Origin: Aminipila butyrica | GTDB lineage: Bacteria; Bacillota; Clostridia; Peptostreptococcales; Anaerovoracaceae | DNA: 32,000 bases | Direction: 5' to 3' | Assembly (NCBI RefSeq): GCF_010669305.1 | Contig: NZ_CP048649.1 | Location: 896,650-928,649 of the forward strand | Part shown: positions 1 to 18,292 of the stretch, one piece after another | How the letters are laid out: each line of letters begins with the position of its first letter | Position numbering within the stretch: position 1 is the stretch's first letter | The notes under the pieces: model-generated | What the model saw: the letters and a program-made list of their open reading frames with translations, nothing else | What the model was told of the DNA's origin: nothing | Databases searched by the model: none | Program-made: the position numbers and the translations under genes

Positions 1-1
1 A

Positions 2-1028: not shown

Positions 1029-1046
1029 AGAAAGGAAAATAAGAAA

Positions 1047-2234: not shown

Positions 2235-2235
2235 G

Positions 2236-2256
2236 GGGGCTTCGGCCCTCTTCTTT
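2236..2256 (+). terminator. Small GC hairpin with TTCG loop after the capsid gene (attenuator or mRNA stabiliser)
   Basis: GGGGC-TTCG-GCCC followed by TCTTCTTT immediately after the capsid stop. Confidence 0.4.
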
Positions 2257-2271
2257 AGAGAGGAGGCCCAA

Positions 2272-2562: not shown

Positions 2563-2888
2563 ATCCAGGAAAATACAGAAATAAGATTACATTTCTGAAA
2601 AGAGAGCATGGTCAAGATGATTACGGAGAGCAGGTAGACGAATGGACAGCCTTTAAGACCGTCTGGGCAGCTAAGGACCCACTACTTGGAAATGAGTTTT
2701 TTAAGGCCGTGGCCACGGAAGCGAAAGTGGAGGTGAAATTCAACTCTCGGTACATTACAGGAATCACGGGTGATATGCGAATCCAGCACGATAATGAAAT
2801 TTACGAGATTCTTTCAGCCATCGACGTTAAATCTCTCCATAAAGAACTTTTGTGTTATTGCAGGAGGATACCAGATGGTGAAGGTTAA
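2559..2888 (+). CDS. Head closure / head-tail adaptor protein (SPP1 gp16-like)
   Basis: 109 aa. ATGA overlap with the upstream gene. The pattern ...FKTVWAAKDPLLGNEFF...EIYEILSAIDV... is typical of this family. Confidence 0.65.
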   Translation: MNPGKYRNKITFLKREHGQDDYGEQVDEWTAFKTVWAAKDPLLGNEFFKAVATEAKVEVKFNSRYITGITGDMRIQHDNEIYEILSAIDVKSLHKELLCYCRRIPDGEG

Positions 2889-3339
2889 GTTTAAGATTGA
2901 GGGCATGAAGGAGCTGCAAAAGAGTTTGAAAAAGCTTGGTGAAGTTCCTCAGAAGCATGTCACTTCATCGGCCCGTAAAGGTATGAATATTATTTTGAAG
3001 GGAGCTAGATCAAATGCCCCTGTCGATACCGGTGACCTGAAGCGGGGGATGAAGCTTTTCGGTGAAAAGTCACGCTTTAAGGGTAAGAAGGTATACCGCA
3101 TCATATTTGATCCTACCATGAACGACATCTTTCAAAAGAAGAATGCGGAGGGCGAAATCACCGGTTACTACCCTATTTCCCAGGAATATGGTTTTTTTTC
3201 CCGAAATGGCAGATATATTCCCGGATATAGGTTTATCCACGATAGCATGGCTGGTAATGCGAAACAAATGGAAAGAATTGTTGTGGACACCATGAAAACA
3301 AAGATTGATCAGGAGATCGGAAAGGCGGGACTGAAATAA
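2875..3339 (+). CDS. HK97 gp10-family tail-joining protein
   Basis: Start moved to ATG 2875 after CAGGAGGA. The N-terminus MVKVKFKIEGMKELQKSLKKLGE... and the PVDTGDLKR motif match the HK97 gp10 family. Confidence 0.65.
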   Translation: MVKVKFKIEGMKELQKSLKKLGEVPQKHVTSSARKGMNIILKGARSNAPVDTGDLKRGMKLFGEKSRFKGKKVYRIIFDPTMNDIFQKKNAEGEITGYYPISQEYGFFSRNGRYIPGYRFIHDSMAGNAKQMERIVVDTMKTKIDQEIGKAGLK

Positions 3340-3480
3340 ATGGATGAGAGGGAAAGGCTCCAACAGGAGTTTGTTGAGAAAATACAAGAAATTATTGACG
3401 GACTTGAAAAGCAGAAGCTTCCGCTGCGCGCAAAACTCCTTCTGTGGATGCTAAAGCGAAAAGTAAAGCGGGTGAAATAA
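3340..3480 (+). CDS. Small basic ORF (46 aa), translationally coupled on both sides
   Basis: ATG 3340 overlaps the upstream TAA (TAAATG). Its own TAA 3478-3480 overlaps the next ATG (ATAATG). It is below the ORF-track size cut-off and I recognised no homology. Confidence 0.3.
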   Translation: MDERERLQQEFVEKIQEIIDGLEKQKLPLRAKLLLWMLKRKVKRVK

Positions 3481-3857
3481 TGGAAAAAGAGCTAAGGTAT
3501 GAACTGGAAAAAGCAATCCCGGAGCTGGCCGGAAACATTTATCCAACTAATGCTCCGGAGGCGTCAAAACGTCCCTATATCGTCTATACCAGAGTCACAA
3601 CGCAACGCACAAAGACGCTGGAGGGCTATACCAGCAAACAGGCGTTATCGTACATGTTTAGCATCATGGCGACAAAATATGCCGATATGAAAGCTCTGGC
3701 TGAGCAGGTGGAGGCCTTTCTAATCGCCCTGCCTGGCAAGGATATTGGGAAGGATGAGATTCATGTCGAGGACGTAAAAATTAATAACATAAGTGAAACC
3801 TATGAATTTGAGCTGAAAGTAAATCGTGGAATCCTTGATTTCACAATCTATTTTTAG
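3480..3857 (+). CDS. Tail completion / tail terminator-like protein (DUF3168-like)
   Basis: I prefer the start at ATG 3480 (MEKELRYELEKAIPELAGNIYPTNAPE..KRPYIVYTRV), an N-terminal pattern typical of siphovirus tail-completion proteins. Lies just before the major tail gene. Confidence 0.55.
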   Translation: MEKELRYELEKAIPELAGNIYPTNAPEASKRPYIVYTRVTTQRTKTLEGYTSKQALSYMFSIMATKYADMKALAEQVEAFLIALPGKDIGKDEIHVEDVKINNISETYEFELKVNRGILDFTIYF

Positions 3858-3875
3858 CAGAAAGGAAAATATAAA

Positions 3876-4313
3876 ATGAGTGATGATGTACGCAGAGCGC
3901 TAGGAACCAAGCTGAAAATAGGCAAAACCACTCCTGTGGCGGTGGCGGGGCTGTCCTCTATCGGGGGGCTGGAGCTGTCAGCCGACACAATAGATACAAC
4001 TACGCTGGATAGTGATGGAGGATACCGAACTTTTATTGCTGGATTTAAGGATGCAGGAGAGGTATCTTTGGAAGGCTTCCTGATCCCGGCCACGGGAAAG
4101 GGACAAAAGGAATTGTACGACCTGTTTGAGAGCGGGGAGGTAGACGATTTCGTGATTGAGTTTCCTCCTGAAACAGGTACGAAATGGGAATTTAAGGGTG
4201 TTGTAACAGGGTTCTCTACGAGTGCAGATCTGGAGGATCCTCTGGCCTTTTCTGCAACGATTAAAGTCAGTGGCAAGCCAACCCTGACGGTGGGAACAGG
4301 AGGTAGCGGATAA
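3876..4313 (+). CDS. Major tail protein (phi13-like)
   Basis: 145 aa. GTKLKIG....VAGLSSIGGLELSADTIDTTTLDSDGGYRTFIAGFKDAGEVSLEG is a typical major tail signature. RBS GAAAGGAAAA. Followed by the chaperone pair. Confidence 0.75.
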   Translation: MSDDVRRALGTKLKIGKTTPVAVAGLSSIGGLELSADTIDTTTLDSDGGYRTFIAGFKDAGEVSLEGFLIPATGKGQKELYDLFESGEVDDFVIEFPPETGTKWEFKGVVTGFSTSADLEDPLAFSATIKVSGKPTLTVGTGGSG

Positions 4314-4615
4314 TGGGATATACACCGATTGAATTGGACAAGGTCCGAAATTTCAGATATGGTATGAAAGCCATATCACTAATAGAAAAAAAGTTGAAAG
4401 CACCCATCGCCAAAATTGATATGGACAGTTTGACTATGGAAGAATCGGCAACCTTGGTTTGGGCTGGACTTGCCCATGAGGATAAAAACCTCACACCAGA
4501 TAAGGTGATGGATCTTATTGATGATTATTCAACCCTGACTGAAGTTATGAAGGCTATGGAGACGGCAATGGAGGAGGCTTTCGGTGTTGCGGAAGAACCG
4601 GGAAAAAACGAGTAG
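4313..4615 (+). CDS. Tail assembly chaperone, short form (G-like)
   Basis: 100-aa acidic protein between the major tail and tape measure genes. Ends just after a slippery run. Confidence 0.7.
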   Translation: MGYTPIELDKVRNFRYGMKAISLIEKKLKAPIAKIDMDSLTMEESATLVWAGLAHEDKNLTPDKVMDLIDDYSTLTEVMKAMETAMEEAFGVAEEPGKNE

Positions 4616-4935
4616 AGGGCGGCGGGGAAGAGTTCAGCGTGGCCGGAGCGCTGGAGCTTGCCGCCCATATCGGAATCCCAGTAACGGAGTTTTGGGAGAT
4701 TACGCCCTTTGAACTTTCTATAGTGGCGAAAGGCTATGCAAAACGAAAAGCAGAAGAGCAGAAAGAAAGCATTGCTCAAGCATATCTGATCTCTCGGTGG
4801 GTATGGCAGAAGAAGATTAATATTAAGAAGATATTTGCTTCCGATGAGAAAAAAAAGCCAATGACAGATGATCAGATGCTGGAACGCGTGAAAGCGCTTA
4901 ATACTGTTTTCGGGGGAATAGTTGAGGAAAAATAA
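4313..4935 (+). CDS. Tail assembly chaperone, long form (GT-like) via -1 frameshift at about 4600-4609
   Basis: The downstream ORF (track 4639..4935) is in the -1 frame relative to 4313..4615. It has no convincing RBS and stays open upstream through the slippery site. This is the classical G/GT arrangement. Confidence 0.55.
4600..4609 (+). promoter_or_regulatory. -1 programmed ribosomal frameshift site (overlapping heptamers G_GGA_AAA and A_AAA_AAC)
   Basis: The zero-frame reads CCG GGA AAA AAC GAG TAG. The -1 frame has no stop across the slippery site (checked 4597-4639) and continues through ORF 4639-4935. Confidence 0.6.
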
Positions 4936-4992
4936 ACATTGCACTCTAATGCTGGAATATGTTACCATATAAAGTACTTGGAGGTGTGTATT

Positions 4993-5832
4993 ATGAAGAA
5001 AATTTTATGTCTAGTGTCTGTTTTAATTATGGTATTTACACTTATATCTTGCGCTCAAGGAGAGGATGCAGGTTCTAAGCAAAAAAAGCAGGCAGATAGC
5101 AGAACGTTAGCTGAGATGGTCTCAGTTTTTCAAGAAAAAGGGATTGATGGAGAAGTAGAGGAGCCATTATTTCAGTTAGTGGGGGCAAAGGCAGGGGCCA
5201 TATTTTATATGGAAAATTCAGTTGTGAAGATTTATGAATTTGAAAGTGAAAAAGACTATCAAAAACAAAAAGCTGAATATACAATCCTGGAGGACATGCC
5301 TGTTAATGGTAAATTTGCTTTAGAGACCAACAGTGAGAAAGCTGAAGAATTGTTTTCTTCTATTGACCTGGAATTAAAAATACTCGCTGAATTAAAGAAT
5401 AGAGAGATTCCGACGGTAAGTATAGGAGAGGTGATTTCAGACGATAGGGCAGAGGTGACTATAAATAAAATAGAGTTTTCCTATGATGTTCTCCCAGATA
5501 ACACGAATTCATTCTATACGCATTATCCAGCAGAATCCGGAAAAGTATATATTCATGTAGATACAGATGTTAAAAACATTCAGAAGCAAGAGCTTAATTG
5601 TGACGAAGTCATGTCGGTAAAAATAGATTATGATAATGGCTATAAATACACAGCTTTTTCAGTACCAGAAGATTCTAGTACTGGATTTGGTTATTCTACT
5701 AGCATAGCACCTCTTACTTCCCTTGGTGTGCATTTTATGGCGGAGTGCCCTCAAGAGGTGGAGGAATCTCAAAAACCAGTAAAAGTCATTTTCCTTCTAG
5801 GCAATGATGAATATGAATATGTGATCAGATAG
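4993..5832 (+). CDS. Lipoprotein (cargo gene); C-terminal half resembles an Ig-like DUF4352-type domain
   Basis: ATG 4993 follows GGAGGTG. The signal peptide MKKILCLVSVLIMVFTLISC carries a lipobox (LISC). The region has lower GC than its flanks by eye. Confidence 0.7.
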   Translation: MKKILCLVSVLIMVFTLISCAQGEDAGSKQKKQADSRTLAEMVSVFQEKGIDGEVEEPLFQLVGAKAGAIFYMENSVVKIYEFESEKDYQKQKAEYTILEDMPVNGKFALETNSEKAEELFSSIDLELKILAELKNREIPTVSIGEVISDDRAEVTINKIEFSYDVLPDNTNSFYTHYPAESGKVYIHVDTDVKNIQKQELNCDEVMSVKIDYDNGYKYTAFSVPEDSSTGFGYSTSIAPLTSLGVHFMAECPQEVEESQKPVKVIFLLGNDEYEYVIR

Positions 5833-5932
5833 AAGATTTGGCTATAAAGTACTCTGAACAAGAAAATATATGACGGTATGTTGTATAATAGTGGAAAAGG
5901 TGTTGTTATTTTTAGTGAGGTGGTGTACTATT

Positions 5933-6682
5933 ATGGGAATTTTCTTGGTAGAAAAATGCAGTTTGTGTGGGAATACGGATCAAGGCGCAGATATTGCAGA
6001 TGGTTACCTATGTCGGAGTTGTCTGAAAAGGTGCGGGCCTTTTCTACCTCATCTGGCACTAAAAACAAAAAATTTAAAACAAGCGGAAAAAGCGATGAAT
6101 CTTAATGAAATAAATAAAAGCCGACTTTCGGAGTTTTCGGCAACAAAAGTAATTGGGCAATGCGCAGAATTTGATGAAAATAATCGATACTGGATGGGAT
6201 TAAGGAACGGACCTACGAAGTCATGGCTAGATCCTATAGTATATAAATTTGATGATATTGTTAATTTTGAATTGCTTGAAGATGGTGAGAGCGTTACAAA
6301 AGGCGGTTTGGGCATGGCAGCTATTGGAGGTCTTGTATATGGGGGCGTCGGAGCTATAGTTGGGAGTGTTGTTGGCAAAAAGAAGACGAAATCGTCCGTT
6401 AACAGTTTGAAAATTAAAATTACCGTGAGAAACAATGACGACCCAGCTGCTTATATTGATATTTTTAACAAGAAGTTGATGGCAGACTCTTCTCTATATA
6501 GACAATATTTTAGCGAAGCGCAAGAAATTTTATCAATGCTATCAATTATAACGGAATCAAATAAACCTTGTGAACCAAAAACATCTGTTGCTGATGAATT
6601 GTTAAAATTTAAGGAATTACTTGACGCAGGCATATTGACACAAGACGAATTTAATCGTGAAAAAGAAAAACTTTTAAAATAA
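5933..6682 (+). CDS. Zn-ribbon / glycine-zipper membrane segment / C-terminal SHOCT-like protein (cargo gene)
   Basis: ATG 5933 follows GTGAGGTGG. Features: CSLCG...CRSC zinc-ribbon-like pairs; a Gly-zipper GGLGMAAIGGLVYGGVGAIVGSVVG; a C-terminus ADELLKFKELLDAGILTQDEFNREKEKLL typical of SHOCT domains. Confidence 0.65.
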   Translation: MGIFLVEKCSLCGNTDQGADIADGYLCRSCLKRCGPFLPHLALKTKNLKQAEKAMNLNEINKSRLSEFSATKVIGQCAEFDENNRYWMGLRNGPTKSWLDPIVYKFDDIVNFELLEDGESVTKGGLGMAAIGGLVYGGVGAIVGSVVGKKKTKSSVNSLKIKITVRNNDDPAAYIDIFNKKLMADSSLYRQYFSEAQEILSMLSIITESNKPCEPKTSVADELLKFKELLDAGILTQDEFNREKEKLLK

Positions 6683-6690
6683 GATTTATT

Positions 6691-6720
6691 AAAAAGCACT
6701 CTTCTAGGGGTGCTTTTTCT
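6691..6720 (+). terminator. Intrinsic terminator immediately upstream of the tape measure gene
   Basis: AGCACTC (6695-6701) pairs with GGGGTGCT (to 6714). The loop is TTCTAG and a TTTTT run follows. Confidence 0.55.
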
Positions 6721-6745
6721 ATTGCCTGAAAGGAGGTGAAAACAG

Positions 6746-9367
6746 GTGGCGAAAAGTAATTTTATAGTAAGAGGCGGAGCTGACTTCTCTGGCATTAAGA
6801 AGGGCCTAGATCAGACCCAGAAGTGGCTAGCTAGTTTTCAGAGCAATATCAGTAGATCATTGAAAGTCGCGGGAACTGGCATTAAGAAGGGCCTAGATCA
6901 GACCCAGAAGCGGCTAGCTAGTTTTCAGAGCAATATCAGTAGATCATTGAAAGTTGCGGGAGCTGTCTTGGGCGGCCTAGCAGTTGGTAAACTTGTTAAA
7001 GATTCTACGGCTATGGCCATGGGCGTTGAAAGTGCTATTGACAATATTGGCCGAAATATGGGCAGCTCCTCTGCCGCCTTTAATAAATGGGCGGAAACCC
7101 AATCAAAAGCTTTTGGAATGGCGAAGGCCGATGCTTACAAATACGGCTCCACCTTTTCCAACCTCCTCAGCAGTTTTTCGGGAAGCACAAAGCAAACAGC
7201 TGATAGCACTCAGGAGCTGATGAAGGCTGCCGCTGTCATATCAAGTAAAACAGGTAGAAGCTATGAAGACACGGCTGAAAGAATCCGATCTGGTATGCTG
7301 GGATCCACCGAGGCGATTGAGGACTTAGGTGTTTACACGAATGTTTCTATGATTGAGAGTACAGATGCCTTTAAAAAGTTTGCAAACGGTAAGTCTTGGG
7401 CACAGCTTGATTTCCAGGTGCAACAGCAGATAAGACTTGCGGCGATACTAGAGCAGACCTATGCTCGTTACGGAGATACCCTGGCTGATACCACACAGAC
7501 CAGGCAAGCCATGTTTATTGCGAGCCTGAAGAATATCCAGCTGAATCTCGGACAGGCTTTTTTGCCTATATATAATGCCGTGCTACCGGTACTAACAGCA
7601 CTTTCGAATAAGATAGAGGCGGTGACTTCTAAACTCAAATACTTCACCCAAGCGATTTTCGGAAAAGCTGTAGCAGGGCCAGTAGCTAAAACGGAAGAAC
7701 AGGCTGCCGCAATCGCTGGAGTAGGAGATGCAGCAGAAACCGCAGGAAAAAAGGCAGCGGCAGCAGGAAAAAAGGCAAAAGGTTCTGTTGCTGGATTTGA
7801 TGAAATCAACTCCCTTGCTGATCCATCCGATTCGTCCGGAAGCGGAGAGAGTTCCTCTGGGGCCGCCATCGCAGAACCGGTTACTGATATTGAGGTGGGG
7901 GAAGACACAAGTGTAAGCTCAGACTTTGAAAGTGCGATTTCTGCCATGAAGAACCGAATAGGGGAAATCAAATCGTATATTGATACATATTTGGCGCCGC
8001 CATTTCAGGAAGCGATAGAGTTGATAAAGCCCAAAATTGGAGAATTTCAATCTATTTTAGCAGGAGTATGGGCCGACATAGGAGCCCATGGTGCTCCGTT
8101 AAAGAACTGGTTCATGTCAGACTTTACACCTTTTTTACAAAACGTAATTAAGTCGATGGGCATTGTTGTTTCTGGACTTTTTGACAGTTTTAATATGGTC
8201 TTTTCGGACATTTGGAAACGTGCGGTATATCCCACTTTAACCAACTTTATATCTGTTGGATTGCCAGTGCTTACAGACTTCTTAAATAAAGCTGTAAGTC
8301 TCTTTACAGTCCTATTTGAAGAAGTAAAGAAAATCTTTGATATGATATGGTCTGAGGCGGTTGCTCCGGCGTTAAGTCTTGTAACTAAAATCTGGATTGA
8401 TACGGTCAATGTTATTGCAGCGACCTGGAATGAATATGGAAACCCAATCTTTGAAGGAATAAAAACAGCGTTTACACTAGTAGGAGAACTACTCAGGACT
8501 GTATGGGAAACCACTTTGAAACCGGTATTCGATACATTCATGGAAACGGTAGATTGGCTCTGGAGCAAACACCTCAAACCGCTGCTCAGTAATGTTACGA
8601 GTTTGGTGGCTGAATTTATTGTCTGTGCCCTAAAAATAATCAATGAATTTATTCTGCCGCTTGTAAAAGAGTTTGTGGAGAGATTTGGTCCGCCGATAGC
8701 TGTAGTATTTGGCACAATAGTAAGCGTACTAGGTACTTTTCTTGCCGTTGCCGCTGACGTGATTGGCGCTGTAATTACGGTGCTTAAAGGCCTTATCCAA
8801 TTTATCACGGGTGTCCTTACAGGAGACTGGTCCAAGGCATGGGAAGGGATAGTAAACATATTCAAGGGAATCTTTGAAGGAATTGGCGGTATTGTACACG
8901 GCGTGGTGAACATCGTTATTGATCTCATTAATGGGATGATACAAGCTGTAACCGTCGGGCTAAACTACGTCATTGATAAACTGAACTCGATCCAGATATC
9001 TATTCCAGATTGGGTTCCGGATATTGGCGGCAGAACCTTTGGAATTAATATAGATAAAATCACAGCCCCAACAATCCCTAAACTTGCAAAAGGCGGCATT
9101 ACAAATGGCCCGACATTGGCTATGATTGGAGACAATCCTGGAGGTCGGGAAGTTGTTTCTCCTCTTGACGATCTTACAAACATGATAGCCAGTGCTGTGG
9201 GCAGTGCCATGATGGGGGCGATGCAGTTTTCCGGAGCCGAACCTGAAAGAGGAGACGGGGATATTATCATAAACCTTAATGACCGAGAATTGGCCAGGGC
9301 CTCTTTAAAATCGCTGAACAAAGAAGCTACACTACTTGGATATAAACCGATTCTACAGACCATATAA
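6746..9367 (+). CDS. Tail tape measure protein
   Basis: 873 aa. GTG start follows AAGGAGGTG. Long helical, low-complexity protein. The C-terminal motif PKLAKGGITNGPTLAMIGDNPGGREVVSPLDDL is typical of TMPs. Position after G/GT. Confidence 0.9.
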   Translation: MAKSNFIVRGGADFSGIKKGLDQTQKWLASFQSNISRSLKVAGTGIKKGLDQTQKRLASFQSNISRSLKVAGAVLGGLAVGKLVKDSTAMAMGVESAIDNIGRNMGSSSAAFNKWAETQSKAFGMAKADAYKYGSTFSNLLSSFSGSTKQTADSTQELMKAAAVISSKTGRSYEDTAERIRSGMLGSTEAIEDLGVYTNVSMIESTDAFKKFANGKSWAQLDFQVQQQIRLAAILEQTYARYGDTLADTTQTRQAMFIASLKNIQLNLGQAFLPIYNAVLPVLTALSNKIEAVTSKLKYFTQAIFGKAVAGPVAKTEEQAAAIAGVGDAAETAGKKAAAAGKKAKGSVAGFDEINSLADPSDSSGSGESSSGAAIAEPVTDIEVGEDTSVSSDFESAISAMKNRIGEIKSYIDTYLAPPFQEAIELIKPKIGEFQSILAGVWADIGAHGAPLKNWFMSDFTPFLQNVIKSMGIVVSGLFDSFNMVFSDIWKRAVYPTLTNFISVGLPVLTDFLNKAVSLFTVLFEEVKKIFDMIWSEAVAPALSLVTKIWIDTVNVIAATWNEYGNPIFEGIKTAFTLVGELLRTVWETTLKPVFDTFMETVDWLWSKHLKPLLSNVTSLVAEFIVCALKIINEFILPLVKEFVERFGPPIAVVFGTIVSVLGTFLAVAADVIGAVITVLKGLIQFITGVLTGDWSKAWEGIVNIFKGIFEGIGGIVHGVVNIVIDLINGMIQAVTVGLNYVIDKLNSIQISIPDWVPDIGGRTFGINIDKITAPTIPKLAKGGITNGPTLAMIGDNPGGREVVSPLDDLTNMIASAVGSAMMGAMQFSGAEPERGDGDIIINLNDRELARASLKSLNKEATLLGYKPILQTI
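6791..6964 (+). repeat. In-frame 87-bp tandem duplication (2 copies, 3 mismatches) in the tape measure N-terminus
   Basis: Copy 1 is 6791-6877 and copy 2 is 6878-6964. The encoded 29-aa units are GIKKGLDQTQKWLASFQSNISRSLKVAGT and GIKKGLDQTQKRLASFQSNISRSLKVAGA. Confidence 0.95.
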
Positions 9368-9379
9368 GGAGGGGAGAAA

Positions 9380-9724
9380 ATGTTAAAAATAAAAGGAATA
9401 GATATGCCAACTCCTTCCGAGCTGAAGGTTGGTATTCAAGACCTTTCTAAGGCAGAAAGAGCCGCTAATGGGCAGATGTTTATTGAGCGGGTTGCCACCA
9501 AACGAAAACTGGAGCCGACCTGGCAGTATCTATCTAATGACGATCTAAGTAGGTTATTTCAAGCCGTTTCGGGTGTGTTTTTTCAGGTAGAATACATAGA
9601 CCCTCAGGATAATGCAAAAAAGACGGGAACCTTTTATGCAGGAGACCGAAAGGCCGGGGCGTTGGATTATCGCAACGGTGTTATACGATATAAAGATATT
9701 TCCGTAAGCCTGGTGGAGAGGTGA
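9380..9724 (+). CDS. Small tail-tip associated protein (function unassigned)
   Basis: 114 aa, directly after the TMP. RBS AAGGAGGGGAG. Assignment is by position only. Confidence 0.4.
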   Translation: MLKIKGIDMPTPSELKVGIQDLSKAERAANGQMFIERVATKRKLEPTWQYLSNDDLSRLFQAVSGVFFQVEYIDPQDNAKKTGTFYAGDRKAGALDYRNGVIRYKDISVSLVER

Positions 9725-9728
9725 TTAC

Positions 9729-11267
9729 ATGCAGTCATTAAGTCAAAACCCATACAGCCCCGAAAGATGGTCAAATATCAAGGTTAGCTTTGAGCTGGTT
9801 GACGTTGATGCGGCGGAGAATGCAGCCGCTTCCGTCACGAGTGAAGCGGCAATATCGGAGCTTGCGCAGACCCATGATCGAGTAGATGGTATGGACAAAA
9901 GGCTAGCATCACTTGAACATAATTACTTCGTCCTGGATGGTTCGTATATTCTACCTGATGAAAGGGATAACGGACAGGTTGGATGGTGGAGCGGAGAAAT
10001 GTCAGAAGCTGATGGCACTTTCACTAACCCACAAGTATTGGAATTTAATTTTACTTCGGGCCAATCCTCCATCGGTTTTACCATAGTGTTCGATGATAAG
10101 GCATATCAGTACGCATCAGATTTTTCCGTAGAAGCTTACGACGGCGACGGCGTGCTCCTGGGTGAGGACGTTGTAGCAGGAAACAACCAGACTGTGTATA
10201 TTTCTGATACTCCGGTAGATGGATACAGAAAAGTTAAGCTTACCTTCTTAAAAACCCCTATTCCATATCGCCGAGTACGAATCGCAGAAGTGGTCTTTGG
10301 TATAGTGCAGATGTTTGACGACACCAATACAACGGAGCTGAATCTTCTGTATGAGATTTCTCCGTGGATGGAGAATATCCCAACTAATGAACTTTCTATA
10401 ACTGTAGAAAACCTTGATCGGCGCTACAACATGATTAACCCTCAGGGAATCTATAAGTATCTGCAAGAGGGTCAAGCACTGGATATCGCAATAGGTGTCG
10501 GTGAGACCCAGTATTCAATTGAACAGGTCAACATGGGGAGAGTTTACTATACCTCCTCCAGTGCCGAAGATAAATCTATGACGGCAAAGCTATTGGCCCA
10601 CGACTGGTTCTATTTCATGGAGGGTATCTGTCGAATTGGAACTACCGGGACCTGGGTAGTTGCTGAGGCGGTTGCGGCGGTAATTGTAGATAGCGAACTG
10701 CCAATTATGACTAATATTCCAGCCCCCGTGGGAGCAAGAATCATAGGCAGGTGCATCCCACCTGATGTCACGCATAAAGAGGCTATTCGGCTAATTGCCC
10801 AGGCAGCTGGAGCGGTCTGCTTTTTCAATCGAGAGGATGAACTGGAATTTGTAGAGCTCGCACTAAGTACTACAGCGGATACCTTAGATAATAGCAAGCT
10901 TACCGAGCCCGCCAAGGTGTCGGTAGCGGACCGTATAAACAAGGTGGAGGTTACTTCTCGGGATGAATACGCTGATATAGAGGCGATTTACACCGCCTCA
11001 AACAAGGAGGCGGGGGAAGTGGACAAAGTACAGACTGTCAACAATCCGCTTGTAATTAGTTCCGATACGGCAGAATGGATTTTGGACGTTTTACAGAAGC
11101 GAATTACTTACAGCCTTCCAGAGAGGGGCAACCCGGCTCGGGAGGTAGGAGATACCGTCAAGATTTATGATGCTTATAACGAGAATCGAAATGCCATTAC
11201 AACCCAAGAAGAATTTTGGTATAGTGGGTACTTAAAGGCCAACACAGAAGCATGGGAGGGGATGTGA
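9729..11267 (+). CDS. Tail tip / baseplate structural protein (Tal-position)
   Basis: 512 aa, in the position of the tail-associated or distal tail proteins. I saw no catalytic motif. Confidence 0.45.
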   Translation: MQSLSQNPYSPERWSNIKVSFELVDVDAAENAAASVTSEAAISELAQTHDRVDGMDKRLASLEHNYFVLDGSYILPDERDNGQVGWWSGEMSEADGTFTNPQVLEFNFTSGQSSIGFTIVFDDKAYQYASDFSVEAYDGDGVLLGEDVVAGNNQTVYISDTPVDGYRKVKLTFLKTPIPYRRVRIAEVVFGIVQMFDDTNTTELNLLYEISPWMENIPTNELSITVENLDRRYNMINPQGIYKYLQEGQALDIAIGVGETQYSIEQVNMGRVYYTSSSAEDKSMTAKLLAHDWFYFMEGICRIGTTGTWVVAEAVAAVIVDSELPIMTNIPAPVGARIIGRCIPPDVTHKEAIRLIAQAAGAVCFFNREDELEFVELALSTTADTLDNSKLTEPAKVSVADRINKVEVTSRDEYADIEAIYTASNKEAGEVDKVQTVNNPLVISSDTAEWILDVLQKRITYSLPERGNPAREVGDTVKIYDAYNENRNAITTQEEFWYSGYLKANTEAWEGM

Positions 11268-11698
11268 TGCCGCTGATACAACCAATTACAAATCGTACCT
11301 TGGCAGACGTCATCTATGCCGATGCCAGGCCGGACAATCAGGAAGCAAGCAAGGGAGCTCTAAATTATACGGACCTAAATCGCATTGAGAGCAACTGCGC
11401 CTATCTGGCCGGGCAGCTCAATACCTACGGGTATAGCATTGACATAACAGTCAAAACCGACTGGATTATGCAGGACTTTCCATACCAGGGGCAGATAGAC
11501 CGAATCCGGCACAATGTGGATGCCTTGCTCGACGCCCTTTATCGTCTGCCGGATAGCCCGCAAATTCGATACTGGAATAGCCTGGATTGGAATGATATAA
11601 ATAGCTTAGAGCAGAACCTTAAAAATATAGATACATTGCTACAGCGCATGGCCGCTGTTTTTTTACGCTGCGGCGACGCTCATGGAGGTGACAGATAA
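11267..11698 (+). CDS. Tail-fibre associated protein
   Basis: ATG 11267 overlaps the upstream TGA by 1 nt. The pattern N.TDLNRIESN..YL...L...GY is recurrent in Firmicute prophage proteins found just before fibres. Confidence 0.4.
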   Translation: MPLIQPITNRTLADVIYADARPDNQEASKGALNYTDLNRIESNCAYLAGQLNTYGYSIDITVKTDWIMQDFPYQGQIDRIRHNVDALLDALYRLPDSPQIRYWNSLDWNDINSLEQNLKNIDTLLQRMAAVFLRCGDAHGGDR

Positions 11699-12889
11699 AT
11701 GAAAGACGGAATTATAAAGGGGGAAGGGACTAGTAGGCTCCTAAAGGCTCCGGCGACGATACCCACGACTTTTGCGGAGTTCCGGACCGCTTTAATCAAC
11801 GGGATGTTGCCGATAGACCTTTTATATAACGCTATCGGCTGGGACGTAGAAGGAACGGCTCTTAATAAGGCTAACCTGCTCACAGACACCGTGGCGGACG
11901 CCCTTGGTCTGGAGAGCGATGAACCTACAGTAAACGAAGCCATAAACGCACTGCTGGCCGTGGCGACTTCGGCGCGAAACGGTCTCATGTCCGCTACAGA
12001 TAAGGTTAAACTGGATGGGGTGGAGGATGAGGCGAACAACTACAGCCATCCAACCAGTCCGGGCAATCGGCATATCCCGACTGGAGGCACGGTGGGACAG
12101 ATACTGCAAAATACAGCGGGTGGTACGGCGACATGGCAGGATTTAGAAGCAGTAAAAACTAAGGTTTCTGAAGCTGTCCGCACTCTCTACGGCCTGACAG
12201 TGGGGGATGCCAATGTAGAGAAAGCACTTCAGGTCTCGATGAATCTGATAAATGTATTGAACAGCATTAGCTATAAGTACGAAACATTTACTTCTAACAG
12301 CGCGTTTACAGTACCTGCTGGGGTTACTAGCGTTTACCTAGTAGGCTGTGCTGCGGGCGCAGATGGCAATAGAGTGTCAAGAGCGTTAGCCGGGGAACCC
12401 TGTATGTTTGAAAAGTATACAGTAACCCCAGGACAGTCGATTCCCGTAACCGTAGGAGCCGGAAATACCGTATTTGGGGTACTTAGGACACTGCTTGCAG
12501 GTAGTCGTGATTTGAGCAGCAATATTTCATTTGGCTCGACCATCCTTGGACTGGATGGAGTTCGAGGCGTGGGGACTGAAGCCACACCTCCAGCAAAACC
12601 AGTTGGGTTTGAAAATGTGGCGGCAGGCGGAATTTTTAAACTCAACTACCCCCATTTTTTTAGAGGCCTGGATTTCAAAATAGGAACGGCTTTGGGTGGG
12701 GCTGGAGGAACCTCTGTTGACAGATACCCTGGATACGGTGGAGTTTTTGGGATGGGAGGGAGTGTCGGAGGCTATAGTGGGTTTGGAGGTGCAAATGCAG
12801 GCGGCTTCGGTGCGGGAGGAGGAAGCGTATCGGCGGCAGGCTCAGCGACTGGCAAAGGCAGTCCGGGATTTTTGATAGTTTTATACTAA
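11699..12889 (+). CDS. Tail fibre / receptor-binding protein with glycine-rich C-terminal domain
   Basis: Contains the fibre repeat motif GLMSATDKVKLDGVE. The C-terminus has GG-rich tracts (GGAGGTS..GYGGVFGMGGSVGGYSGFGGANAGGFGAGGG) and ends GSPGFLIVLY. It shares the block KVSEAVRTLYGLTVGDANVEKAL with ORF 28466. Confidence 0.65.
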   Translation: MKDGIIKGEGTSRLLKAPATIPTTFAEFRTALINGMLPIDLLYNAIGWDVEGTALNKANLLTDTVADALGLESDEPTVNEAINALLAVATSARNGLMSATDKVKLDGVEDEANNYSHPTSPGNRHIPTGGTVGQILQNTAGGTATWQDLEAVKTKVSEAVRTLYGLTVGDANVEKALQVSMNLINVLNSISYKYETFTSNSAFTVPAGVTSVYLVGCAAGADGNRVSRALAGEPCMFEKYTVTPGQSIPVTVGAGNTVFGVLRTLLAGSRDLSSNISFGSTILGLDGVRGVGTEATPPAKPVGFENVAAGGIFKLNYPHFFRGLDFKIGTALGGAGGTSVDRYPGYGGVFGMGGSVGGYSGFGGANAGGFGAGGGSVSAAGSATGKGSPGFLIVLY

Positions 12890-12900
12890 GGAGGAACAGC

Positions 12901-13284
12901 ATGTTTGCGCAAGTATTGAACCACAATCATATCGTATCGCTAATAGGTGGTGCAGAAATGGGCTTACCCATTAAAGATGAAAGGGTAAGCTGTATAGACA
13001 TTGGGGAGAATCCACAAGGGGTACAAACGGGTATGCTTTACGACCCACAGCAAAAAAGTTTTAAATGGGACATTACCGAATTAAGCTTAGAAGAACGGCA
13101 TGATGCGCTATCTATCCAGTATATCCATGAAAAGTATAGCTATGACGACGAAAATAAGATTATGCGGGAATACCTATCTGACATGGAAAACGAAACGTAC
13201 AAGCAAGTGTTTGAGGCATACAATGCCTATGTGCTTAAATGCAAGCAAAAGGCCTATAAAGAAGTTTATGGAGAGGAAAAATAA
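12901..13284 (+). CDS. Hypothetical protein downstream of the fibre (possible fibre accessory)
   Basis: 127 aa. RBS AAGGAGGAA. Assigned by position only. Confidence 0.4.
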   Translation: MFAQVLNHNHIVSLIGGAEMGLPIKDERVSCIDIGENPQGVQTGMLYDPQQKSFKWDITELSLEERHDALSIQYIHEKYSYDDENKIMREYLSDMENETYKQVFEAYNAYVLKCKQKAYKEVYGEEK

Positions 13285-13293
13285 TCAGTTAAA

Positions 13294-13318
13294 ATCACGC
13301 AATGAAGCGTGTTTTTTT
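13294..13318 (+). terminator. Intrinsic terminator
   Basis: CACGC (13296-13300), loop AATGAA, GCGTG (13307-13311), then TTTTTTT. Confidence 0.55.
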
Positions 13319-13358
13319 AATACATTTTTTAAGCCGAAAGGCAGAAAGAGAGGTCATT

Positions 13359-13592
13359 ATGACTAAGGAAGAAAGAGCAAAGCAGAAAGAGTTCACAAAG
13401 AAGTATGATGCAACTATCAGACAAATTGCGGTTGCAGAGAGCAAAGACATGAGTGTGGCTGAGGACATGCTTAAGTATGAGATCCGTGTGCGCCTAGGTA
13501 TGCAGAAGAGAGAAGACATCTACAAAGGCATTCCAGAAGTTTTCAACTGGAAGACGGCAGAAGCAGACTACATGGAACTGATCAAGAAGTAG
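13359..13592 (+). CDS. Hypothetical 77-aa protein in its own terminator-bounded unit
   Basis: ATG 13359 follows AGAGAGG. The track start at 13302 lies inside the upstream terminator loop, so I rejected it. Confidence 0.4.
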   Translation: MTKEERAKQKEFTKKYDATIRQIAVAESKDMSVAEDMLKYEIRVRLGMQKREDIYKGIPEVFNWKTAEADYMELIKK

Positions 13593-13600
13593 GAATGATA

Positions 13601-13620
13601 GGGGCCTTCGGGCTCCCTGT
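13601..13620 (+). terminator. GC hairpin with TTCG loop (weak terminator)
   Basis: GGGGCC-TTCG-GGCTCC followed by CTGTTGTT. Confidence 0.4.
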
Positions 13621-13649
13621 TGTTAAAGTATAAATCTTAATTGTATAAT
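13620..13649 (+). promoter_or_regulatory. Sigma-A-type promoter candidate for the Kelch gene
   Basis: TTGTTA (13620-13625), an 18-nt spacer, then TATAAT (13644-13649), in an AT-rich gap. Confidence 0.4.
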
Positions 13650-13737
13650 AGAAAAATATGTAAAAACAGAATTGAAATAAATGTGGAAACATGAAACAAT
13701 ATTGTTAAAATATACAATAAAGAAAGAAGGAAACAAT

Positions 13738-15099
13738 ATGAGACGATTTATAGCAATTTTAATGACATTGTGTATGGTACTAGGCATGTCGAGTGTGAGT
13801 GCTTGGGCGGCAGAAGCGGAAGGATGGCAGACTAAAATGATGATGCCCACATCTCCATATCGATTTGACACTTGTGTAGTAGGAGATCGCATTTTTGTTC
13901 TAAGTGGAGAAAAGAGTAATTTGGTTACAATTTATAACACTAAAACCGACACGTGGAAAATGGGAACTCCCATGCCTGAAATACCAGACTCCACTATGGC
14001 TGTTGCCGTAGGAAATAAAGTATATGCTATATGCAGGAATACTGCTCTTGGTGGCTTTATGCAAATATATGATCTATCTACAAATACATGGACAGTTGAG
14101 AAGAATATGTCTAACTTAAAAGAAGGTATGGGCGTGGCTGTTATTGGAGATAATTTATATATGCCTACTTGGAATTATTTAGATTCCACAACAAATATGT
14201 CAATATATGATACGGTATCAAAAACGTGGATAAGCAGTGAGAAAAAAACTCCTATAAAAACTGCCATGTATGCGGTGTGTACACAGGGGACAAACATTTA
14301 TTTGGTTGGGGGAAGTGATGATAGTCGTGCGTTGCAAGTGTACGATTCAACGGCAGATACATGGAAAGTTTTAAAAAGCATGCCAACGGCCAGGAAGTAT
14401 TTAACTGCTGTTGTGGTAGATAATAAAATTTATGCAATGGGGGGAGAGCTTAAAGGTGTTACTAATGTGGTGGAGGTTTATGATATAGGACAAGACAGTT
14501 GGAGTAAGGGGGTACCCATGCTTATAGAGAGACATAGTTTCTCGTCAGAAGCAGTTAATGGAAAGATTTATGCAATAGGGGGGAAGGGAACCTCTGGAAG
14601 TTTAAATTCAATAGAAGCTCTTCAAGTAGGAAACCCAGATAGTGAAACATCTAATAAATTATCCGTATTATTAAACACCACCGAAAACGTCCAGCTCAGC
14701 ACAGCTTTTGACTTAGCCAACAACCAGAACTTCACCTGGTCGTCTACCAACGATGCTGTAGCCACAGTGGACAGTAATGGCAAAGTAACCGCTGTCAGTG
14801 CTGGCGATACAGATATTTATGCTGAGAACGCAGATGGCACTTTTAAGGAGTATATCCCTGTGAAAGTGGTAGAAGGAATTGCAGATGAATTACGTCTGGC
14901 GGTTCACTTAAAAGCGGGAGAGAAAGCAAAGCTATATCTGACAGACGACCCCAGTCTAGTAACCTGGAGTTCTATGGATGAAAGCATTGCGACAGTGTCT
15001 GCTGAGGGGCAAGTTACAGGTGTAAAGAAAGGTCTAGCTATCGTTAAAGCAGAGCTAGAGGGTGAGACTTATCAAATCTATGTACGTGTAAATGGATAA
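13738..15099 (+). CDS. Secreted Kelch-repeat beta-propeller protein with two C-terminal Big_2 (bacterial Ig-like) domains
   Basis: ATG 13738 follows AGAAGGAAAC. Signal peptide MRRFIAILMTLCMVLGMSSVSAWA. Repeated units of the type ..W....MP..R......V..KIYA.GG. Two Big_2-like units (FTWSSTNDAVATVDSNGKVTAVSAGDT and VTWSSMDESIATVSAEGQVTGVKKGLA). Low GC. Confidence 0.8.
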   Translation: MRRFIAILMTLCMVLGMSSVSAWAAEAEGWQTKMMMPTSPYRFDTCVVGDRIFVLSGEKSNLVTIYNTKTDTWKMGTPMPEIPDSTMAVAVGNKVYAICRNTALGGFMQIYDLSTNTWTVEKNMSNLKEGMGVAVIGDNLYMPTWNYLDSTTNMSIYDTVSKTWISSEKKTPIKTAMYAVCTQGTNIYLVGGSDDSRALQVYDSTADTWKVLKSMPTARKYLTAVVVDNKIYAMGGELKGVTNVVEVYDIGQDSWSKGVPMLIERHSFSSEAVNGKIYAIGGKGTSGSLNSIEALQVGNPDSETSNKLSVLLNTTENVQLSTAFDLANNQNFTWSSTNDAVATVDSNGKVTAVSAGDTDIYAENADGTFKEYIPVKVVEGIADELRLAVHLKAGEKAKLYLTDDPSLVTWSSMDESIATVSAEGQVTGVKKGLAIVKAELEGETYQIYVRVNG

Positions 15100-15117
15100 T
15101 TTATAAAACAGTCAGAG

Positions 15118-15140
15118 CCACGGAGCAATCCGTGGTTTTC
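15118..15140 (+). terminator. Intrinsic terminator after the Kelch gene
   Basis: CCACGGA-GCAA-TCCGTGG followed by TTTT. Confidence 0.65.
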
Positions 15141-15173
15141 TTGTATCCAGAATTTTTATTATAACTGAAAACC

Positions 15174-15198
15174 GGGCACGCGCATGCGTGTCTTTTTA
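15174..15198 (+). terminator. Second hairpin plus T-run upstream of the lysin gene
   Basis: CACGC-GCAT-GCGTG followed by TCTTTTTA. Confidence 0.45.
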
Positions 15199-15234
15199 TA
15201 TGCCTTTAAGCTAAAGGCGGAAAGGAAAAGAATT

Positions 15235-15816
15235 ATGCAGCTACAACATCTACCATATACCCCTCTGCGCATCACATCCGGATTCGGCCCGAGAAAGACC
15301 AACATTGCCGGAGCATCTACCGACCATATGGGTGTGGACATAGGGACGGACAAAAGCAAGCCATACACGGCTACAGACGGCGGACCGGTGACGGCTGCTC
15401 TGCCCGGGACCGTAGTCAGCAGTTACTACAATAACTTGCGGGGTTGGGTGGTCCTCCTGGACCACGGCACCATAGAAGGCCAAAACATAAAAACCTTATA
15501 CCAGCACCTAAAGCAAGCCGGAAGTGCCGTGGGAACAAAAGTAAAAGCTGGGGACCGTATCGGCACCATGGGCAACACCGGCGTGGGCGCCCAGCTCCAT
15601 TTGCACTTTGAGTTGCGGGTTAATAACACTTGCGTAGACCCAGAGCCGTATTTGAAAAACATCAAGGAGGTAAAAACCATGGAAAATATCACATTAGATG
15701 AAGCGAAGAGAATTGTCAAAGAAAAAGCAGGTTTGGATGACAACACCATCCAGTACCTGCTTTTCTATAAGTACGGCGAAACGCTGGTGAAGAAGATTGC
15801 CGTAGCGGTGCAGTAG
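15235..15816 (+). CDS. Peptidase M23 (LytM-type) endolysin candidate
   Basis: Carries HMGVDIG (HxxxD) and LHLHFE (HxH) zinc-site motifs and GNTG. The start at ATG 15235 gives MQLQHLPYTPLRITSGFGPR, which matches the second copy at 31854. Followed by holin-type genes. Confidence 0.8.
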   Translation: MQLQHLPYTPLRITSGFGPRKTNIAGASTDHMGVDIGTDKSKPYTATDGGPVTAALPGTVVSSYYNNLRGWVVLLDHGTIEGQNIKTLYQHLKQAGSAVGTKVKAGDRIGTMGNTGVGAQLHLHFELRVNNTCVDPEPYLKNIKEVKTMENITLDEAKRIVKEKAGLDDNTIQYLLFYKYGETLVKKIAVAVQ

Positions 15817-15825
15817 GGAGGCCAT

Positions 15826-16047
15826 ATGAGCACAGAATTTTGGACTGGGCTGCTCATCAGCCTGGTGTCTTACGGGGTAACCTTTGGGGCCTTTTACGGT
15901 ACTGTTATGACAAAACTGAATGTCCTGGAAAAGAAGCAGGATATTCATAATGGGCTAATGGAACGGATGGTGGTAGTGGAGCAGTCCACGAAATCCGCTC
16001 ATCATAGAATAGACGAATTTAAGGAGGAACATATCCATGAAAATTAA
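15826..16047 (+). CDS. XhlA-like membrane protein (lysis accessory)
   Basis: 73 aa. One N-terminal TM segment (FWTGLLISLVSYGVTFGAFYGTV) followed by a coiled-coil, as in PBSX XhlA. Confidence 0.55.
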   Translation: MSTEFWTGLLISLVSYGVTFGAFYGTVMTKLNVLEKKQDIHNGLMERMVVVEQSTKSAHHRIDEFKEEHIHEN

Positions 16048-16285
16048 CTGGAAATTGCGATTAAAAAATAAGACTACACTGTTGTCTCTGCTGGCATGCC
16101 TGGCAGCATTTATCTACCAGGTTCTGGGAATCTTGGGCATCACGGCGCCCATCTCAGAAGAGCAAGTGACACAGGTTTTCGGCCTGATTGTTAATCTGCT
16201 GGGGGCTATCGGTATCATGGTGGACCCGACCACCTCCGGGACTGGTGACAGCTCCAGGGCGCTGGAGTATAAAGAACCAAATTAA
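16037..16285 (+). CDS. Holin, phi LC3 / XhlB-like family
   Basis: MKINWKLRLKNKTTLLSLLACLAAFIYQV...IVNLLGAIGIMVDPTTSGTGDSSRALEYKEP closely follows the phage_holin_1 (phi LC3) pattern as I recall it. Confidence 0.75.
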   Translation: MKINWKLRLKNKTTLLSLLACLAAFIYQVLGILGITAPISEEQVTQVFGLIVNLLGAIGIMVDPTTSGTGDSSRALEYKEPN

Positions 16286-16298
16286 AAAAAGTACATGT

Positions 16299-16326
16299 AG
16301 CCGCCTTAGTAGGACGGCTTTTTTAT
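16299..16326 (+). terminator. Intrinsic terminator after the holin
   Basis: AGCCG...CGGCT stem followed by TTTTTTATTT. Confidence 0.55.
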
Positions 16327-16354
16327 TTGTGTAATCGAGCCTTGTCGAAATAAT

Positions 16355-16386
16355 TAACCGCATATAGTGTCAAATAGTGGTACAAT
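16355..16386 (+). promoter_or_regulatory. Extended -10 promoter candidate
   Basis: TGgTACAAT at 16378-16386. The -35 is weak. Confidence 0.35.
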
Positions 16387-16416
16387 ATGGTAAAAGTATA
16401 TTCTAAGGAGGAGATT

Positions 16417-17070
16417 ATGAAAAGGAAATTACTATCAACAATTTTGGCAATTGCAGTCTTTGCAGCTTCCGCTTCTATGGCCTTTGCCGGAAATATAGGA
16501 GTCAACATTAACGGCGTAAAAGTTGATTTTACCAATGACACTGGAGCTGCGTTTGTGGATAATGCAAATCGTACGCAGGTACCACTAAGGGTGACAATGG
16601 AGGGTTACGGATGCCAAGTAAGCTGGGATCAAGAAACTCAAACGGCCATAGTTACAAAGGACAGTAATAAAGTTGAGGTGCCTATTAACCAAAATTACAT
16701 CATAGTTAATGGGAACAAACAGGATATTGATACTGCCGCACAAGTTGTTAACAGCCGTACATATTTACCAATCAGAGCAGTATTAGAGGCTTTCGGAGCT
16801 AGCGTAAGCTGGGACCAGACTGCTCAGACGGTAGTTATAAAAACAAATACTGAAGGTACTGTACCTGCTACCCATGTTGAAAAAAACACCGCTACCCCAT
16901 CGGTAACACAAGCTGAGGCAGCCTATGTTGGCAATAACGGTACAAAAAAATATCATAAATTAGATTGTAGATATGTAAACAGCATCAAGGCAGAGAATGT
17001 AGCTTATTTTAAAACAAAGTTGGATGCAACTGCTGTTGGGTATGAGGCGTGCAAAGTTTGTAATCCGTGA
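16417..17070 (+). CDS. Secreted protein with two copper-amine-oxidase-N-terminal-like (stalk) repeats and a C-terminal His/Cys metal-site-like motif
   Basis: ATG 16417 follows AAGGAGGAG. Signal peptide MKRKLLSTILAIAVFAASASMAFA. Repeats VPLRVTMEGYGCQVSWDQETQTAIV and YLPIRAVLEAFGASVSWDQTAQTVVI. C-terminus YHKLDCRYV...GYEACKVCNP. Confidence 0.65.
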   Translation: MKRKLLSTILAIAVFAASASMAFAGNIGVNINGVKVDFTNDTGAAFVDNANRTQVPLRVTMEGYGCQVSWDQETQTAIVTKDSNKVEVPINQNYIIVNGNKQDIDTAAQVVNSRTYLPIRAVLEAFGASVSWDQTAQTVVIKTNTEGTVPATHVEKNTATPSVTQAEAAYVGNNGTKKYHKLDCRYVNSIKAENVAYFKTKLDATAVGYEACKVCNP

Positions 17071-17186
17071 TTATTTGCATTTGAAAGTATCAAATTATTA
17101 TATTTAGCAATAATGTTCTTGAGTGATATAGAATGTTAGTTTATAATCGTGTTACAAACTGTGCAATCCTCATGCACTAAACTTCA

Positions 17187-17215
17187 AAAATACCGGGCAT
17201 TAAACCCGGTATTTT
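17187..17215. terminator. Perfect 11-bp hairpin, A-tract/T-tract flanked (bidirectional-type terminator) at the prophage/cotJC junction
   Basis: AAAATACCGGG-CATTAAA-CCCGGTATTTT. Confidence 0.7.
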
Positions 17216-17750
17216 GTATTATAGTCAGATGCTGTGTGGAGGACCCGACGGGGAACTAGGAGCCACGCTCAGATACTTATCACAGCGCTATACCATGCCA
17301 TACAAAGAGTGCATCGGTATATTAACCGACATCGGTACAGAGGAAATCGGCCACTTTGAAATGATTGCAACTATCGTACATCAACTGACCAGGGGACTGA
17401 CTATTGAACAGATTAAAGCGGCGGGCTTTGGTGATTACTTTGTAGACCACACTACAGGCATTTATACAGTGTCTGCAGCAGGGGTTCCTTTTGATGCCAC
17501 CTGTTTTGCCTCAAAAGGAGACGCAATCACAGACTTGATGGAAGATATGGCAGCAGAGCAGAAAGCGAGAACTACTTATGACAACATCCTGCGGTTAGCC
17601 GACGACCCGGATGTCATTGAACCAATTAAGTTTTTAAGAGCTCGAGAAGTCGTTCATTTCCAGCGTTTTGGCGAAGCTCTGCGGGTTGTTCAGGATAACT
17701 TGAACAGCCGGAATTTCTATGCCTTCAACCCAGAATTTGATCGCTGCTAA
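17214..17750 (+). pseudogene. cotJC: 5'-truncated CotJC-family manganese catalase (spore coat protein) gene
   Basis: GGPDGELGATLRYLSQRYTMP...LTDIGTEEIGHFEMIATIV...EDMAAEQKARTTY...FLRAREVVHFQRF matches CotJC / Mn-catalase throughout. The roughly 26 N-terminal residues conserved in the family are absent. The track TTG start lies inside the hairpin, there is no RBS, and an in-frame stop sits at 17178-17180. Confidence 0.7.
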
Positions 17751-17770: not shown

Positions 17771-17806
17771 AAAAAAGAGGAAGCTTGGAGCAGCTTCCTC
17801 TTTTCT
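17771..17806. terminator. Bidirectional terminator between convergent cotJC and the immA-like gene
   Basis: AGAGGAAGCT-TGGAGC-AGCTTCCTCT 10-bp stem, flanked by AAAAAA and TTTTC. Confidence 0.7.
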
Positions 17807-18270: not shown

Positions 18271-18292
18271 CCCCTTAAATCATTCATCAACA

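Follow-up and report, generated by a model that had tools for sequence, protein, structure and literature searches.

Several prophage-like elements that split a mother-cell gene and are removed by a large serine recombinase (LSR) have been described, namely skin in sigK, SPbeta in spsM, vfbin in spoVFB, gin in gerE and yin in yabG (PMC4191935, PMC5025042, PMC5499854, PMC5595907, PMC10747680). We analysed a stretch of 32,000 nucleotides of Aminipila butyrica DNA (the window), in which the 3′ part of cotJC lies at the right end of a siphovirus-type prophage. This split is a further case of the known kind of gene-splitting insertion, and the target is not new. The original prediction did not count cotJC as an established target, and on this point it has to be revised: the gene was already listed among the sporulation genes into which phages or transposons insert (Abe et al. 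2013, cited in bioRxiv 10.1101/2021.11.22.469490), and a skin-like element has been reported in cotJC of Laceyella sacchari (Galperin et al., bioRxiv 10.1101/2022.02.25.481979). The earlier elements share the target gene and are phage, transposon or skin-like inserts with a SpoIVCA-type recombinase. These examples come from the Bacilli side and are mentioned in passing, whereas the window host is an Anaerovoracaceae clostridium and the window insert is an apparently complete siphovirus with its break mapped to the base.

Like the window prophage, SPbeta (SprA, SprB; PMC4191935, PMC5499854) is a tailed prophage that splits a spore-envelope gene. It is an active prophage of Bacillus subtilis, its LSR uses a short core, and its precise excision restores the mother-cell gene spsM. 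However, its mother-cell excision is proven and is driven by the sporulation-specific expression of sprB, whereas the recombinase of the window prophage is a predicted one; phage type, target gene and host class also all differ. The skin element in sigK (SpoIVCA in B. subtilis; skinCd with a directionality factor in C. difficile, PMC5025042) is likewise an LSR-borne element in a sporulation gene, and many of the cotJC elements described below resemble it in that the recombinase gene closes the element and immediately precedes the 3′ fragment of the split gene, as reported for spoIVCA. But skin is a defective element whose excision is obligatory for sporulation, while cotJC is a non-essential coat gene, often with paralogues. 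The window element also differs from skin in being a complete-looking phage with lysis genes rather than a recombinase at its right edge. Elements of this class are also found in late mother-cell genes of Clostridium botulinum (gin, vfbin and yin; PMC5595907, PMC10747680), and they include non-phage mini-elements comparable to one of the small cotJC elements found here (L230), but their targets are others and excision or its phenotype has been tested experimentally for them. Finally, one end of prophage phi027 of C. difficile R20291 adjoins CDR20291_1465, a CotJC homologue (PMC11222575). That paper does not state that the gene is split, and the relationship is a lead only.

The open reading frame at 17214-17750 matched the Mn_catalase profile PF05067 (E = 5.3e-40, 137.6 bits, cutoff 27) over profile positions 28-197, with the N-terminus missing. 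Alignment with 12 close relatives showed that the intact proteins begin with MWTYEKKLQYPINIKNPNPAMAKFIITQY followed by GGPDGE, and that the homology of the window copy starts exactly at GGPDGE. The DNA from 17238 onwards corresponds to residues 30-199 of the CotJC/Mn-catalase protein; 29 N-terminal codons are absent, and with them the conserved N-terminus MWxYEKKLQYP... by which a full-length CotJC is recognised. The frame is intact to the stop codon and every family-invariant residue is kept. Judged by its sequence, the window copy of cotJC is a gene fragment and not a gene. The original prediction had described the reading frame as CotJC-like over its whole length and lacking about 26 residues. 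The likeness holds from 17238 on according to both the profile and the alignment, while the first eight codons are phage DNA, and the uninterrupted allele and the intact relatives put the loss at 29 residues. The coordinates of the features are given in the table.

Features of the window around the cotJC junction (positions of the whole stretch)
Feature	Position	Strand	Basis or remark
Siphovirus-type prophage late region	1..17070	+	Pfam and PHROGs
M23 endolysin	15184-15816	+	Pfam, PHROGs
Holin	16037-16285	+	Pfam, PHROGs
Last prophage gene, Cu_amine_oxidN1 and Ada Zn-binding domains	16387-17070	+	Pfam, PHROGs
Prophage non-coding right end	17071..17237	+	No similarity to intact cotJC (alignment to L236 and Aminipila L001)
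Hairpin, perfect 11-bp stem	17187..17215	+	17187-17197 pairs with 17205-17215; -16.1 kcal/mol
Putative P-arm half-site from phage attP	17217..17240	+	Motif at consensus spacing
cotJC 3′ part	17238..17750	+	Codons 30-199 and stop; PF05067, protein alignment, 151/151 nt to L236
Predicted crossover dinucleotide GG (first two bases of Gly31 codon)	17241..17242	+	Inferred from other elements
GC-rich hairpin, T/A runs on both sides	17771..17806	.	Terminator scan: 15 pairs, called on minus strand
ImmA-type metalloprotease	17842-18270	minus	Right-hand cluster
CI-like repressor	18293-18814	minus	Right-hand cluster
Xre/Cro-like gene	18929-19213		Right-hand cluster

The break could be placed by means of an uninterrupted allele. 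A Logan contig of 1,664 bp (L236, from SRR27257707) carries DUF1836, cotJA and cotJB, followed by cotJC without interruption as far as codon 79, where the contig ends. From GGAGGACCC (17238) to the end of this contig, 151 of 151 nt are identical to the window; upstream of 17238 the two are unrelated, and homology to attB starts abruptly there. The breakpoint lies between 17237 and 17238, that is, between codons 29 and 30 of the L236 allele, and therefore the DNA at 17214-17237, which encodes the first eight codons of the reading frame, belongs to the phage. When the 5′ end on L236 and the window fragment were joined in silico at the GG, an ORF of 199 aa was obtained, which is 94.9% identical to the CotJC of Aminipila sp. 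without gaps. The comparison with an uninterrupted cotJC, which the original prediction had proposed, thus confirmed the split at single-base resolution. With 100% identity between fragment and empty allele, the intactness of the fragment indicates a recent insertion and not selection. The residues in front of GGPDGE in the window frame (IPGIKPGILYYSQML) had been considered for their resemblance to the CotJC N-terminus. This resemblance is due to chance, the DNA being unrelated to that of the intact allele.

In L236, as in Aminipila sp. (L001), cotJC lies downstream of cotJA and cotJB. The CotJB encoded on L236 is identical to a protein named 'CotJB [Aminipila butyrica]' (P0248), and the genome that holds the window appears to hold a cotJB gene as well, which fits a 5′ piece of cotJC lying elsewhere in this genome. 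No intact CotJC from the window's genome was found among the 120 best protein matches (down to 74% identity). The L236 contig could come from another strain, or from a cured or excised population.

The sequence in front of the fragment offers little for its expression. As originally described, the TTG codon (17214-17216) lies inside a perfect 11-bp hairpin, being located in its 3′ arm; an in-frame stop codon (TAA, 17178-17180) is present 12 codons upstream of this TTG, and a ribosome-binding site is absent, since no GGAGG-like sequence could be read before TTG 17214 or ATG 17229. The hairpin has a fold z of -4.0 against shuffles. It was not called by our terminator scan, whose rule its T-tail failed, yet it is terminator-like in character and stands at the end of the phage late operon. 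A sigma-70-like promoter match (TTGAGT-17-TATAAT, 10/12) is present at 17119-17147 in the terminal non-coding DNA of the phage. It faces the cotJC fragment, with the strong hairpin about 40 nt further on, and could either drive a short transcript or be a chance match. Behind the fragment, the GC-rich hairpin at 17771-17806 is probably the terminator of the cotJ operon, and probably serves the convergent ImmA-like gene too.

The DNA to the left of the junction is that of a prophage, in agreement with the original prediction. Pfam and PHROGs identified in it a complete siphovirus late-gene module consisting of genes for a head protease, the major head protein, adaptors/connectors, head closure, a tail terminator, the major tail protein, the tape measure, distal tail proteins, a Kelch/Big_2 protein, an M23 endolysin and a holin. 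Every visible late gene is intact, and the module ends with the lysis genes.

We then compared the position of the cut with that in other elements and genomes. An alignment-based scan of IMG/VR gave 229 viral contigs with a CotJC relative; a single-protein query with full-length CotJC matched none. The cut was at GGPDGE in at least 76 of the best 80 of these 229 contigs, and at least 35 unrelated groups of sequence stood in front of it. Two further contigs (L041 and L049) also start at GGPDGE by eye. Among the best 80 loci of GTDB species representatives, 10 were cut at the same place and 68 were intact, and none of the GTDB matches listed was a 100% match. A pattern search for the region of the cotJC start codon gave 74 more viral contigs. 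About 50 of these loci represent the complementary 5′ junction: cotJC ends after ...QYGG(P), and foreign sequence with stop codons follows at once. In total, about 135 junctions at the same codon were found in other elements. Together with L236, they bear out the view that a siphovirus integrated into cotJC and that the 3′ part of the gene stands at the right end of the prophage. The hosts in which this site is used include Lachnospiraceae, Oscillospiraceae, Anaerovoracaceae and others.

Other insertion points in cotJC were seen as well. About 19 loci end right after ...TDIGTEE.AH, which contains the metal-binding EExxH, and continue with similar foreign sequence (...*WK*). The 5′-fragment loci are L083, L085, L086, L092, L100-L102, L111, L112, L120, L124, L145, L146, L148 and L152-L154, and two loci (L116, L130) end after TDIG. 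In L073 and L075, a 3′ fragment of cotJC begins close to codon 8 (..LQYPV), and the same GTACAAG arm precedes both. The literature search turned up no mapping of the site, no test of excision from cotJC and no account of its frequency in gut clostridia. The use of one dinucleotide by many recombinase lineages, with extra hotspots in the same gene, may go beyond the published record.

Two features of the surroundings recur. As in the window, a GC-rich hairpin is located 30-70 nt before the junction, just outside the att arm, in many unrelated elements inserted in cotJC (L016, L018, L036, L003 and others), and this suggests a shared layout of an operon terminator followed by attP. The gene itself can be present more than once: a Lachnotalea sp. 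locus (L229:10001-13633) has two intact cotJC copies 3 kb apart, and another locus (L168) has one intact-looking and one split copy. Such redundancy may make insertions into cotJC tolerable.

The enzyme responsible can be recognised in many of the other elements. At 37 of the 87 attR-type junctions, an ORF of 470-530 aa ends 14-130 bp before the junction. All nine such ORFs that were tested matched both Resolvase and Recombinase, and seven of the nine also matched Zn_ribbon_recom, a combination that identifies them as LSRs. The remaining attR junctions have lysis genes at the edge, as in the window. On the attL side of some of these lysis-edge elements there is a convergent recombinase gene; for L091 and L098 the assignment is by the motif AYIRVSDERQ only. 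Two elements were complete, with the two cotJC halves flanking the element in the same orientation (L230, 7,442 bp; L094, 9,583 bp). Reconstruction of attP gave in both cases an imperfect palindrome centred on the GG of the Gly31 codon, and in L230 the core common to both ends is 12 bp. In-silico excision gave a CotJC ORF of 211 aa for L230 and of 209 aa for L094. There was no long target duplication, the 5′ fragments meeting stop codons right after the junction. As to their content, the first of these elements (L230:2564-10005, 7.4 kb, from a Lachnospiraceae MAG) contains an LSR gene with TrkA/TrkH-like and AdhE-like cargo and no phage structural genes, and the second (L094:399-9980, 9.6 kb) is bordered by a lysozyme-like gene on one side and by an LSR gene on the other.

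The att arms on the element side also proved to be alike. The arms at attR and the reverse complements of those at attL share one consensus (TATnATAGGTTAtTGCa.t..), in which the distance from the start of TATnATAG to the central GG (Gly31 codon) is 24 nt (35 non-redundant element-side arms). In the window, TATTATAG occupies 17217-17224, so that its start is exactly 24 nt ahead of the GG at 17241-17242. Its arm scored +6.6 bits against the consensus and ranked 124 among 63,940 window positions (top 0.2%), which is moderately unusual; we regard the score as supportive, not as overwhelming alone. With regard to the point of exchange, the stretch common to attB and attR starts at 17238 (GGAGG). 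Codon 30 is sometimes other than Gly at attR junctions (AGA, GAA) and codon 32 varies at attL junctions (P/L/V/T/A), whereas GGN stands at codon 31 of every attR junction except one, whose alignment register is shifted. This pattern, variable on both sides of a nearly constant codon 31, places the exchange at the GG of codon 31, which is the predicted crossover dinucleotide for the window phage too. When IMG/VR was searched with the 512-aa tail protein of this phage, there was no match and thus no close relative. The assignment of an LSR to this phage therefore rests on the att-arm motif and on the other elements, and from these we infer that it uses one.

We consider it highly probable that cotJC was split by recombinase-mediated insertion of the prophage, and that the split is reversible on excision. 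On this reading the DNA at 17238-17750 is the distal, attR-side piece of the gene, and a temperate siphovirus integrated between codons 29 and 32 and cut cotJC in two, almost certainly by means of a phage-encoded LSR. This enzyme would recognise the DNA of the invariant GGPDGE motif, and strand exchange would take place at the GG of the Gly31 codon. At attL, one prophage length upstream of the window, we would expect cotJA, cotJB and the first 30-31 codons of cotJC (MWTYNKKLQFPVNIKNPNPAMAKYIITQYGG), probably with a convergent LSR gene beside this 5′ half; the arm on the attL side should resemble the reverse complement of TATTATAGTCAGATGCTGTGTGGA. The location of the 5′ half is thus a predicted one. 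The lysogen would be unable to make CotJC, because a stop codon and the terminator hairpin stand in front of the fragment, which itself lacks a ribosome-binding site and 29 conserved residues.

Exchange by serine recombinases is conservative, and excision between attL and attR needs a directionality factor. Since the exchange is conservative, any excision would restore the intact 199-aa gene. Ordinary lysogeny, in which the prophage is excised only on induction and no switch is coupled to sporulation in this host, is what we would expect, with some reserve. The left part of the prophage could have been deleted or degraded, which would make the split irreversible.

A switch of the skin or SPbeta type is possible, though we regard it as rather doubtful. 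In this case the prophage would be excised only in the sporulating mother cell, for example through a directionality factor driven by sigma-E/sigma-K; CotJC would be made only in the mother cell, and the prophage would stay in the genome of the spore. The cotJ operon is a mother-cell operon in Bacillus subtilis. Every proven case of this kind is an LSR at a sporulation gene (PMC4191935, PMC5025042, PMC5595907). The split 3′ fragments are all intact ORFs (87 of 87 examined), but intact fragments are equally expected from recent insertions, and that of the window is 100% identical to the empty allele. Small non-phage elements with an LSR and cargo share the site (L230), as skin does in sigK, and in the 37 of 87 cases mentioned above the LSR gene immediately precedes the 3′ fragment and is codirectional with it, an arrangement also reported for spoIVCA and spoIIIC (bioRxiv 10.1101/2022.02.25.481979). 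However, the content of the window says nothing on regulation. Aminipila species are described as non-spore-forming (PMC11362086), which makes sporulation-coupled excision less likely in this host. Many clostridia, moreover, have cotJC paralogues (L229 and L168; two in C. aminobutyricum), so that loss of one copy may simply be tolerated.

It is improbable that the fragment is a dead remnant. In this case an old insertion would later have undergone deletion or rearrangement, and the pseudogene would have neither a 5′ piece nor a working recombinase left with which it could be rejoined. A second phage-like cluster adjoins the fragment immediately on the right, which indicates that the region is prone to rearrangement. 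But there is no decay, as shown by the identity of 151/151 nt to the intact allele and by the frame, which is open to the stop codon. The junction also contains a canonical att arm at the canonical spacing, a cotJB gene is apparently present in the genome, and the late genes of the visible prophage are all intact.

We find it scarcely credible that the fragment is a working, naturally short CotJC paralogue translated from TTG 17214 or ATG 17229. It does have an open frame of 178 codons in which all residues of the catalytic core are conserved. However, this frame has no ribosome-binding site, starts in a stable hairpin 12 codons after an in-frame stop and opens with eight codons of phage DNA, and the N-terminal segment that it lacks is carried by 12 of 12 aligned relatives and by the 68 intact GTDB loci. 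That the catalase fragment is cargo which belongs to the phage genome and travels with it, as its frequent inclusion in 'viral' contigs of IMG/VR might suggest, is hardly tenable. The fragment is identical to a chromosomal allele that belongs to a cotJA-cotJB-cotJC operon; in the viral contigs its place is the edge, and the elements in front of it are many and unrelated. Of 50,697 deposited phage records, just 12 had cotJC-like matches, none of them a cultured phage of a clostridial host (tblastn with CotJC on deposited phage genomes gave a few unannotated faecal contigs and unrelated catalases).

The split explains the apparent pseudogene in the window. Since the phage-free allele has the whole gene, of which the fragment is one half, the fragment should be annotated as a split gene with an attR site. 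More generally, one 2-bp position in a highly conserved motif of cotJC is used repeatedly by different serine-recombinase elements. A natural conserved attB with many pairs of integrase and attP could help to insert DNA in gut clostridia that are hard to engineer. After sigK, spsM, spoVFB, gerE and yabG, cotJC is the next candidate for an effect of prophages on spore properties. The window case itself is a weak model for the developmental question, because its host genus is reported not to sporulate.

We put forward, as a speculation that we think unlikely, that the GGPDGE DNA is a clostridia-wide landing pad for dozens of LSR lineages, borne by phages as well as by small cargo elements, and that at least some of the elements are reversible spore-coat switches. 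If this were true, excision of the switch elements would take place in the mother cell, or else in some proportion of the population, and lysogens would give spores with or without the CotJC catalase. The extra hotspots after TDIGTEE.AH and near codon 8 would then point to repeated selection of cotJC as a harbour that is safe, conserved and silent in development.

To the right of cotJC, directly after its terminator, there is a second phage-like cluster (17842-32000). After the regulatory genes listed in the table it contains a contractile-tail module with a tail terminator, sheath, tube, tape measure, XkdP-like protein, baseplate wedge and fibre-like proteins. Between the regulators and the tail genes there are no genes for head, packaging, replication or integrase, and for this reason the cluster looks like a tailocin of the PBSX or diffocin type, or like a defective myovirus prophage. 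We considered whether it might be the other half of the same prophage and rejected this, as it starts after the complete 3′ end of cotJC and the terminator. In Aminipila sp. (L001), unrelated genes are found downstream of cotJC.

Two genes of the siphovirus-type prophage have unusual or cargo-like features. In the product of the last gene (16387-17070), Cu_amine_oxidN1 is a 'stalk' domain; the gene is positioned after the holin gene and is cargo-like, and its homologues occur widely in Bacillota, where fusions to nuclease or beta-lactamase-fold domains are frequent. Between the siphovirus tail genes and the lysis genes, 13681-15099 encodes a protein of 472 aa with Kelch repeats and Big_2, a mix that is unusual for this position, and this protein may be a receptor-binding or cargo protein.
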